From assembly GCF_003334255.1 (NCBI RefSeq), contig NZ_QOWU01000227.1: 510 bases of DNA; one strand, given 5' to 3'. Position numbers and translations under genes: made by a program. Positions within the stretch are counted from its first letter, which is position 1, and every line of letters begins with the position of its first letter. The notes under the pieces are model-generated. The model saw only the letters and a list, made by a program, of their open reading frames with translations, did not search any database and was not told where the DNA came from. The stretch is from Escherichia coli (GTDB lineage Bacteria > Pseudomonadota > Gammaproteobacteria > Enterobacterales > Enterobacteriaceae). Below are positions 1-501 of this stretch, one piece after another.

Positions 1-501
1 CTCACCAGAGGCTTTCGCATCGCTACCCAGAGAAACCTTCCCATTCTCCCCATCTTCGACGCTGAAACCTGTAATTTCTGTTTTTTCCAGGCCATACACC
101 TTGTTGTACACGCCACGAACAGCACTGTCTGTCAGCTTGTGAGGTGGAGTATTTCCATTTTGTTCATTTTTTTTACCCTCAGCAGTCCTTGCAAAATCTT
201 TCAGCGCCGGGTCATGAAGTGTATGGGTGATACCCTTACCTTTAACGGTCACATTACCTTCTGAATCAAATTTGAAAAGTGTCCTCTTGTCGTTTTTTTT
301 CTCTTTTACTTCGTATCTGAAGTTACCATTATCGACTGTCTTTACAACTTCATAGGTGCTGCCATATTTAACCGGTCCGCTCTTCTGCGAATCATCCTGC
401 AACACTGAATATGTACCATTCTGCGCACTCACTCCACCACTCATCACCAGAAGCCCGGCCAGAGAAGATGACAGGAGTGTCATTGTAAACTTTTTACTCA
501 T
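1..501 (-). CDS. Exported protein of unknown function with N-terminal Sec signal peptide; partial, 167 codons visible, 3' end beyond window
   Basis: Reverse-complement reading from ATG (plus-strand 'cat' at 499-501) is open without a stop for 167 codons to position 1. Translation: [167 protein letters not shown]. The N-terminus has a clear n-region (KK), hydrophobic core and V-S-A cleavage motif. All three plus-strand frames contain stops (frame 1 at 262-264, frame 2 at 140-142, frame 3 at about 63-65). Product family not recognised from memory; no search was possible. Confidence 0.8.
167..174 (-). repeat. A8 homopolymer in the coding strand (T8 on plus strand), encoding Lys110-Lys111 within G-K-K-N-E
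   Basis: Direct read: plus strand 'catttttttta' around 165-175; coding strand GGT AAA AAA AAT GAA. Confidence 0.9.
293..300 (-). repeat. A8 homopolymer in the coding strand (T8 on plus strand), encoding Lys68-Lys69 within E-K-K-N-D
   Basis: Direct read: plus strand 'cgtttttttt' at 291-300; coding strand GAG AAA AAA AAC GAC. Confidence 0.9.
424..501 (-). other. Predicted Sec (signal peptidase I) signal peptide, 26 aa, cleavage predicted after VSA, before QNG
   Basis: MSKK (positive n-region), [16 protein letters not shown] (hydrophobic h-region), SGGVSA (c-region with small residues at -3 and -1). No cysteine follows the cleavage site, so it is not a lipoprotein lipobox. The boundary is predicted by eye, not computed. 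Confidence 0.7.

Follow-up and report, generated by a model that had tools for sequence, protein, structure and literature searches.

What gene lies behind a 510-nucleotide stretch of Escherichia coli DNA (the window) whose product looks exported, yet had been read from its sequence as belonging to no recognisable family? The sole long ORF of the window is on the minus strand, begins with an ATG at positions 501-499 and runs through 167 codons to base 1 without meeting a stop, and 3-16 stops are found in each of the other five frames. The chance of 167 open codons is about 3e-4, calculated as (61/64)^167 under the assumption of equal codon usage, so the minus-strand ORF is not random. The coding frame claimed at 1-501 is real, on a strand that the sequence-only reading had left unstated. 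Small plus-strand ORFs of 25-42 aa are also present and might hint at plus-strand coding or a structured RNA instead, but every plus-strand frame is broken by 3-8 stops and the ORF on the minus strand is verified as a gene; a search of both strands of the window against Rfam returned no match at E ≤ 1. We assign this explanation no probability at all.

The verified gene is eibD. A megablast search against phage records aligned all 510 of the 510 nucleotides to positions 966-1475 of AF151675.1 at 100% identity. This record is named 'Enterobacteria phage P-EibD', its host is E. coli ECOR-9, and the matched feature is eibD, encoding the immunoglobulin-binding protein EibD. The CDS is annotated at 975-2510 (511 aa), and from its start at 975 it follows that the window consists of the first 167 of 511 codons, preceded by 9 nt of leader. 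The ATG of the window (499..501, minus strand) is the annotated start of the CDS, and 502..510 on the same strand hold the final 9 nt of the 5' untranslated leader of eibD (ATATCCATA); an AGGA Shine-Dalgarno motif is located just beyond the window, and the leader region in the P-EibD locus (L001) reads ...aacAGGAtatccataATG. The window ends inside the ORF, whose full length is presumed to be that of the identical GenBank record. Moreover, UniProt Q9MCI8 (EibD) is the top match in AFDB50 with Foldseek, and phrog_10464 of the PHROG collection matches the fragment (E = 9e-62). No difference was found between the window DNA and EibD (UniProt Q9MCI8; GenBank AAF63040.1; PDB 2XQH and 2XZR). The window is almost certainly the 5' end of eibD, a gene for an immunoglobulin-binding trimeric autotransporter adhesin (TAA), carried as a moron adjoining the tail-fibre genes of the lambdoid prophage P-EibD in E. 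coli ECOR-9.

That the window might represent a novel, uncharacterised secreted or surface protein of no known family finds its support in the 167-aa fragment alone. Neither the fragment nor an alignment of its N-terminal domain (NTD) with homologues matched Pfam or NCBIfam at E ≤ 0.001, except for YadA_head in the flanks of some members, and the fragment has no significant match among PDB sequences. However, the DNA is 100% identical to a named and experimentally studied gene, and the complete protein belongs to the YadA-like TAAs, with crystal structures and an extensive literature available, which leaves this proposal with hardly any probability. The lack of Pfam, NCBIfam and PDB matches stems from the absence of a model for the NTD and not from novelty of the gene, and the impression of an unrecognisable family arose because only the family-specific N-terminal domain was in view. 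The absence of a family thus holds for the fragment, and for an NTD with neither a solved structure nor a neighbour outside the Eib family, but not for the gene. EibD is an already known, well-studied, prophage-borne surface adhesin that binds antibodies, and this confident match to a well-characterised family removes the supposed novelty; the proposed surface location is correct.

A different Eib paralogue could also be considered in place of EibD, whether EibC, EibE, EibG, EibA or one of the unnamed YadA-like adhesins of prophages, since eib genes are mosaics with near-identical upstream regions and signal peptides and a short 5' fragment could in principle be recombinant. All 510 nt, including the variable NTD, are nonetheless 100% identical to eibD, while the runners-up among phage records reach 87% (PhiR12_3) and 80% (eibC and eibE). 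Among 5,426 complete E. coli genomes a related gene was detected in 18, in each case annotated as 'YadA-like family protein', and the best of them is 96.3% identical. A paralogue is therefore very improbable, and we retain eibD.

The architecture of the full-length protein places the window in its context. EibD is a trimeric autotransporter adhesin of the YadA-like type (type Vc secretion): it has a Sec signal peptide, head repeats followed by a neck and a coiled-coil stalk, and a C-terminal YadA-like anchor. The last of these, YadA_anchor (PF03895), was found beyond the window at residues 453-511 of the full-length translation (E = 5.2e-16), and five YadA_head matches of Pfam lie between residues 156 and 264. 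The first YadA_head match (residues 156-176) is partly inside the window, and the ORF runs on past window base 1. Judged from the 14-residue register read from the sequence, the YadA-like beta-roll head starts at residue 146, and residues 146-167 (1..66, minus strand) make up its first 1.5 repeats; the sequence-only reading overlooked this start of the head repeats at the end of the window. Over its full chain length, PDB 2XQH corresponds to EibD residues 158-418 (E = 2e-154), differing only at the first residues of the construct, and spans head, neck, stalk and saddle, while 2XZR matches residues 381-442. Full-length EibD also matches 2LME, the YadA anchor, and further TAA heads. Residues 1-157 are absent from the EibD crystal structures and are covered by the window, which shares residues 158-167 with the crystallised construct. 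The 2XQH structure is described as three identical intertwined monomers, and Eib multimers are reported to be SDS-stable (PMC7247746, PMC5450701).

Comparison with YadA of Yersinia, the prototype TAA, shows a common plan of Sec signal peptide, left-handed parallel beta-roll head of 14-residue repeats, coiled-coil stalk and YadA_anchor. The NCBIfam YadA model covers only residues 158-510 of EibD, scoring 106 bits against a cutoff of 750 bits. Published accounts of the domains give Eib proteins an additional N-terminal 'Eib region' and describe none for YadA (PMC7568254, PMC12511318), and its relatives in our searches were E. coli Eib-like proteins only. The ligands also differ, being collagen for YadA and IgA and IgG, via the stalk, for EibD.

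Export of the product, as claimed from the sequence, is upheld. The predicted Sec signal peptide comprises residues 1-26 (424..501, minus strand). A rule-based analysis of its n-, h- and c-regions identified two Lys in the n-region, a hydrophobic core of about 16 residues with 11-residue Kyte-Doolittle means up to 2.0, and a c-region of small residues in which position -3 is V and position -1 is A (a V-x-A motif); cleavage is predicted by these rules to occur after Ala26 (VSA|QN). No Cys and no lipobox are present in the 167-aa translation. The amino acids of the signal peptide are unchanged in six of seven eib loci, and the DNA of its codons is 99-100% identical to eibD in five of the six loci compared. 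Furthermore, the 'EibD signal peptide' has been used experimentally as an export signal, and a SpyTag at the N-terminus left after signal-peptide cleavage was labelled by externally added SpyCatcher (PMC12511318). Sequence rules, invariance in six of seven loci and published experimental use together support the export of EibD.

A possible course of events from synthesis to adhesion can be outlined. By sequence rules and published use, the 26-residue signal peptide would send the precursor through the Sec route and be cut off after VSA. From what is known of type Vc families, the C-terminal YadA-like anchor would then trimerise into a 12-stranded outer-membrane barrel through which the passenger is exported. 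The passenger would fold as a lollipop with the NTD at the membrane-distal tip. Underneath would follow the beta-roll head, its first repeats contributed by the window's last 22 codons, and then in order the neck, a right-handed coiled coil, the saddle and, lowest, a left-handed coiled coil. According to the literature, IgA and IgG-Fc are bound by the stalk and not by the part encoded in the window, the whole head (NTD, beta-roll and neck) mediates homotypic cell-cell contacts leading to chains and clumps, and the NTD alone is dispensable for chains and has a modest share in adhesion.

Several published observations bear on these functions. Eib proteins bind IgG Fc and IgA in a non-immune manner, at sites in the stalk outside the window (PMC7247746, PMC5450701), and a passage of PMC7247746 citing Leo et al. 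2011 attributes IgA and IgG binding to two regions of the EibD stalk. Eib proteins are also reported to confer serum resistance (PMC5450701), and EibD causes cells to autoaggregate, coaggregate and form chains (PMC7568254, PMC12511318). Chains are abolished when the whole head (NTD, beta-roll and neck) is deleted, whereas deletion or swapping of the NTD keeps chain formation and slightly reduces adhesion (PMC12511318).

Most of the window (67..423, minus strand) encodes the Eib-specific NTD, approximately residues 27-145, which has been called the 'Eib region' (PMC7568254) or NTD (PMC12511318). In the mature part we counted 12.8% Lys, 11.3% Gly, 9.2% Val and 8.5% Thr with no Cys, in agreement with the earlier description of a product with about 12% Lys, rich in Gly, Thr and Val and free of cysteines and lipobox. 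That description had also proposed a beta-rich fold, quoting motifs located at residues 49, 61, 83 and 154. An AlphaFold2 monomer model predicts six beta-strands (residues 30-34, 46-54, 61-68, 71-78, 83-87 and 92-96) and then two alpha-helices (residues 98-107 and 125-140), so that the strands were anticipated correctly but the helices were not. The model is of a monomer only, was built from a 10-sequence alignment and has moderate confidence, with a mean pLDDT of 63.6 and 70-84 in the core. All indels among the Eib homologues fall in two NTD loops, at residues ~35-46 and ~108-120 (window 364-399 and 142-177, respectively), and these loops coincide with the segments of low pLDDT in the model. 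The two indel-rich loops could be surface-exposed and variable.

Relatives of the NTD seem to be restricted to the Eib family. A word-based search of 5.8 billion proteins yielded six homologues, all of them E. coli Eib-like fragments, and when 1.84 billion representatives were searched exhaustively with phmmer, eight matches emerged, five of which are Eib-like TAAs. A profile of ten NTDs found nothing below E = 0.1 in the PDB, and a structure search with residues 27-145 revealed no fold neighbours outside the E. coli Eib family. The plectin repeats of periplakin (PDB 4Q28) were examined as a candidate relative and dismissed as homologues, with a score under any meaningful threshold, 4% identity and unrelated biology. 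Of the three other phmmer matches, P0009 (E = 1e-13) is a protein of 6660 aa with about 19 near-identical tandem repeats that looks eukaryotic and cadherin-like on reading, P0013 is a repeat protein, and P0014 looks like an archaeal-type repeat protein. On reading their sequences we rejected all three as unrelated, compositional matches whose scores are inflated by many near-identical repeats. We also abandoned the notion of the NTD core as a repeat module found in giant adhesins. The false positive P0009 results from weak matches summed over repeats, which calls for caution with E-values that combine several stretches.

We infer that the NTD, as a variable domain at the tip, caps the beta-roll and probably adjusts the specificity of adhesion or self-recognition. 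A bolder proposal is that it constitutes a new fold confined to the prophage-borne Eib adhesins of E. coli, located at the tip of the fibre, where the loops would form a putative binding site that diversifies and that serves either to bind a host ligand or to let Eib-bearing cells discriminate between self and non-self; we put this forward tentatively and consider it rather unlikely. If true, binding by the NTD loops would differ from the Ig binding of the stalk. The gene was reportedly cloned and given its name in 2000, and crystals comprising most of the EibD passenger are said to date from 2011. The 'Eib region' was reported without structural data in PMC7568254; the window-encoded domain was modelled and experimentally deleted in 2025, and its AlphaFold2 models already led to the term 'novel fold' (PMC12511318). 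As a discovery the window therefore carries little weight, with the gene, the passenger structure and the domain deletion already published. Of this mosaic adhesin, which is virulence-associated and carried by phages, the window does contain the module that varies most and that has no relatives outside the Eib family.

The relatives of EibD share its general layout. EibC, EibE, EibG, EibA and the unnamed 'YadA-like family protein' genes of E. coli prophages resemble it in signal peptide, in NTD fold family and in lying downstream of tail-fibre and DUF4376 genes, but the NTDs of other Eib proteins are 34% to 93% identical to that of EibD, with indels in the two loops. Unlike EibD, proteins of the EibA type (e.g. 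P0011) have no beta-roll head (PMC12511318). In a module comparison of L001 625-2610 with six further loci (L002-L007), identity to eibD was 52-96% for the NTD, 76-87% for the beta-roll, 69-76% for the stalk and 81-98% for the anchor, and varied independently between loci. Across all seven eib loci, the 350 nt preceding the ATG show 97-99% identity. Taken from sequence comparison alone, this pattern suggests that eib genes are modular mosaics with recombination at the module boundaries.

The surroundings of eibD within the prophage are conserved. In AF151675.1 it is preceded by ORF-191D, which matches tail-fibre PHROGs and is DUF4376-like, and this arrangement is repeated in six other loci including that of the complete phage PhiR12_3; the gene order tail fibre, DUF4376 protein, eib and a 156-aa ORF is hence conserved in seven loci. 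Stem-loops flanking eibD are annotated in the GenBank record upstream (L001 844-872) and downstream (2535-2563), and the downstream one was recovered here as a terminator-like hairpin with a T-run at L001 2544-2560. Such a hairpin would fit transcription of eibD as a unit of its own. The 156-aa ORF always comes after eib (ORF-156D at L001 2599-3069, with equivalents in L002-L007); ORF-156D matches phrog_6585, a group of unknown function, and showed no NCBIfam match and no signal peptide. Just downstream of the eib cassette there is often, in several E. coli chromosomes, a gene for an S6-family (SPATE) autotransporter peptidase (L002 10435-14427, L003 from 5354 onward and L006 from 5469 onward), so that the prophage end carries a cluster of two distinct virulence genes of type V secretion.
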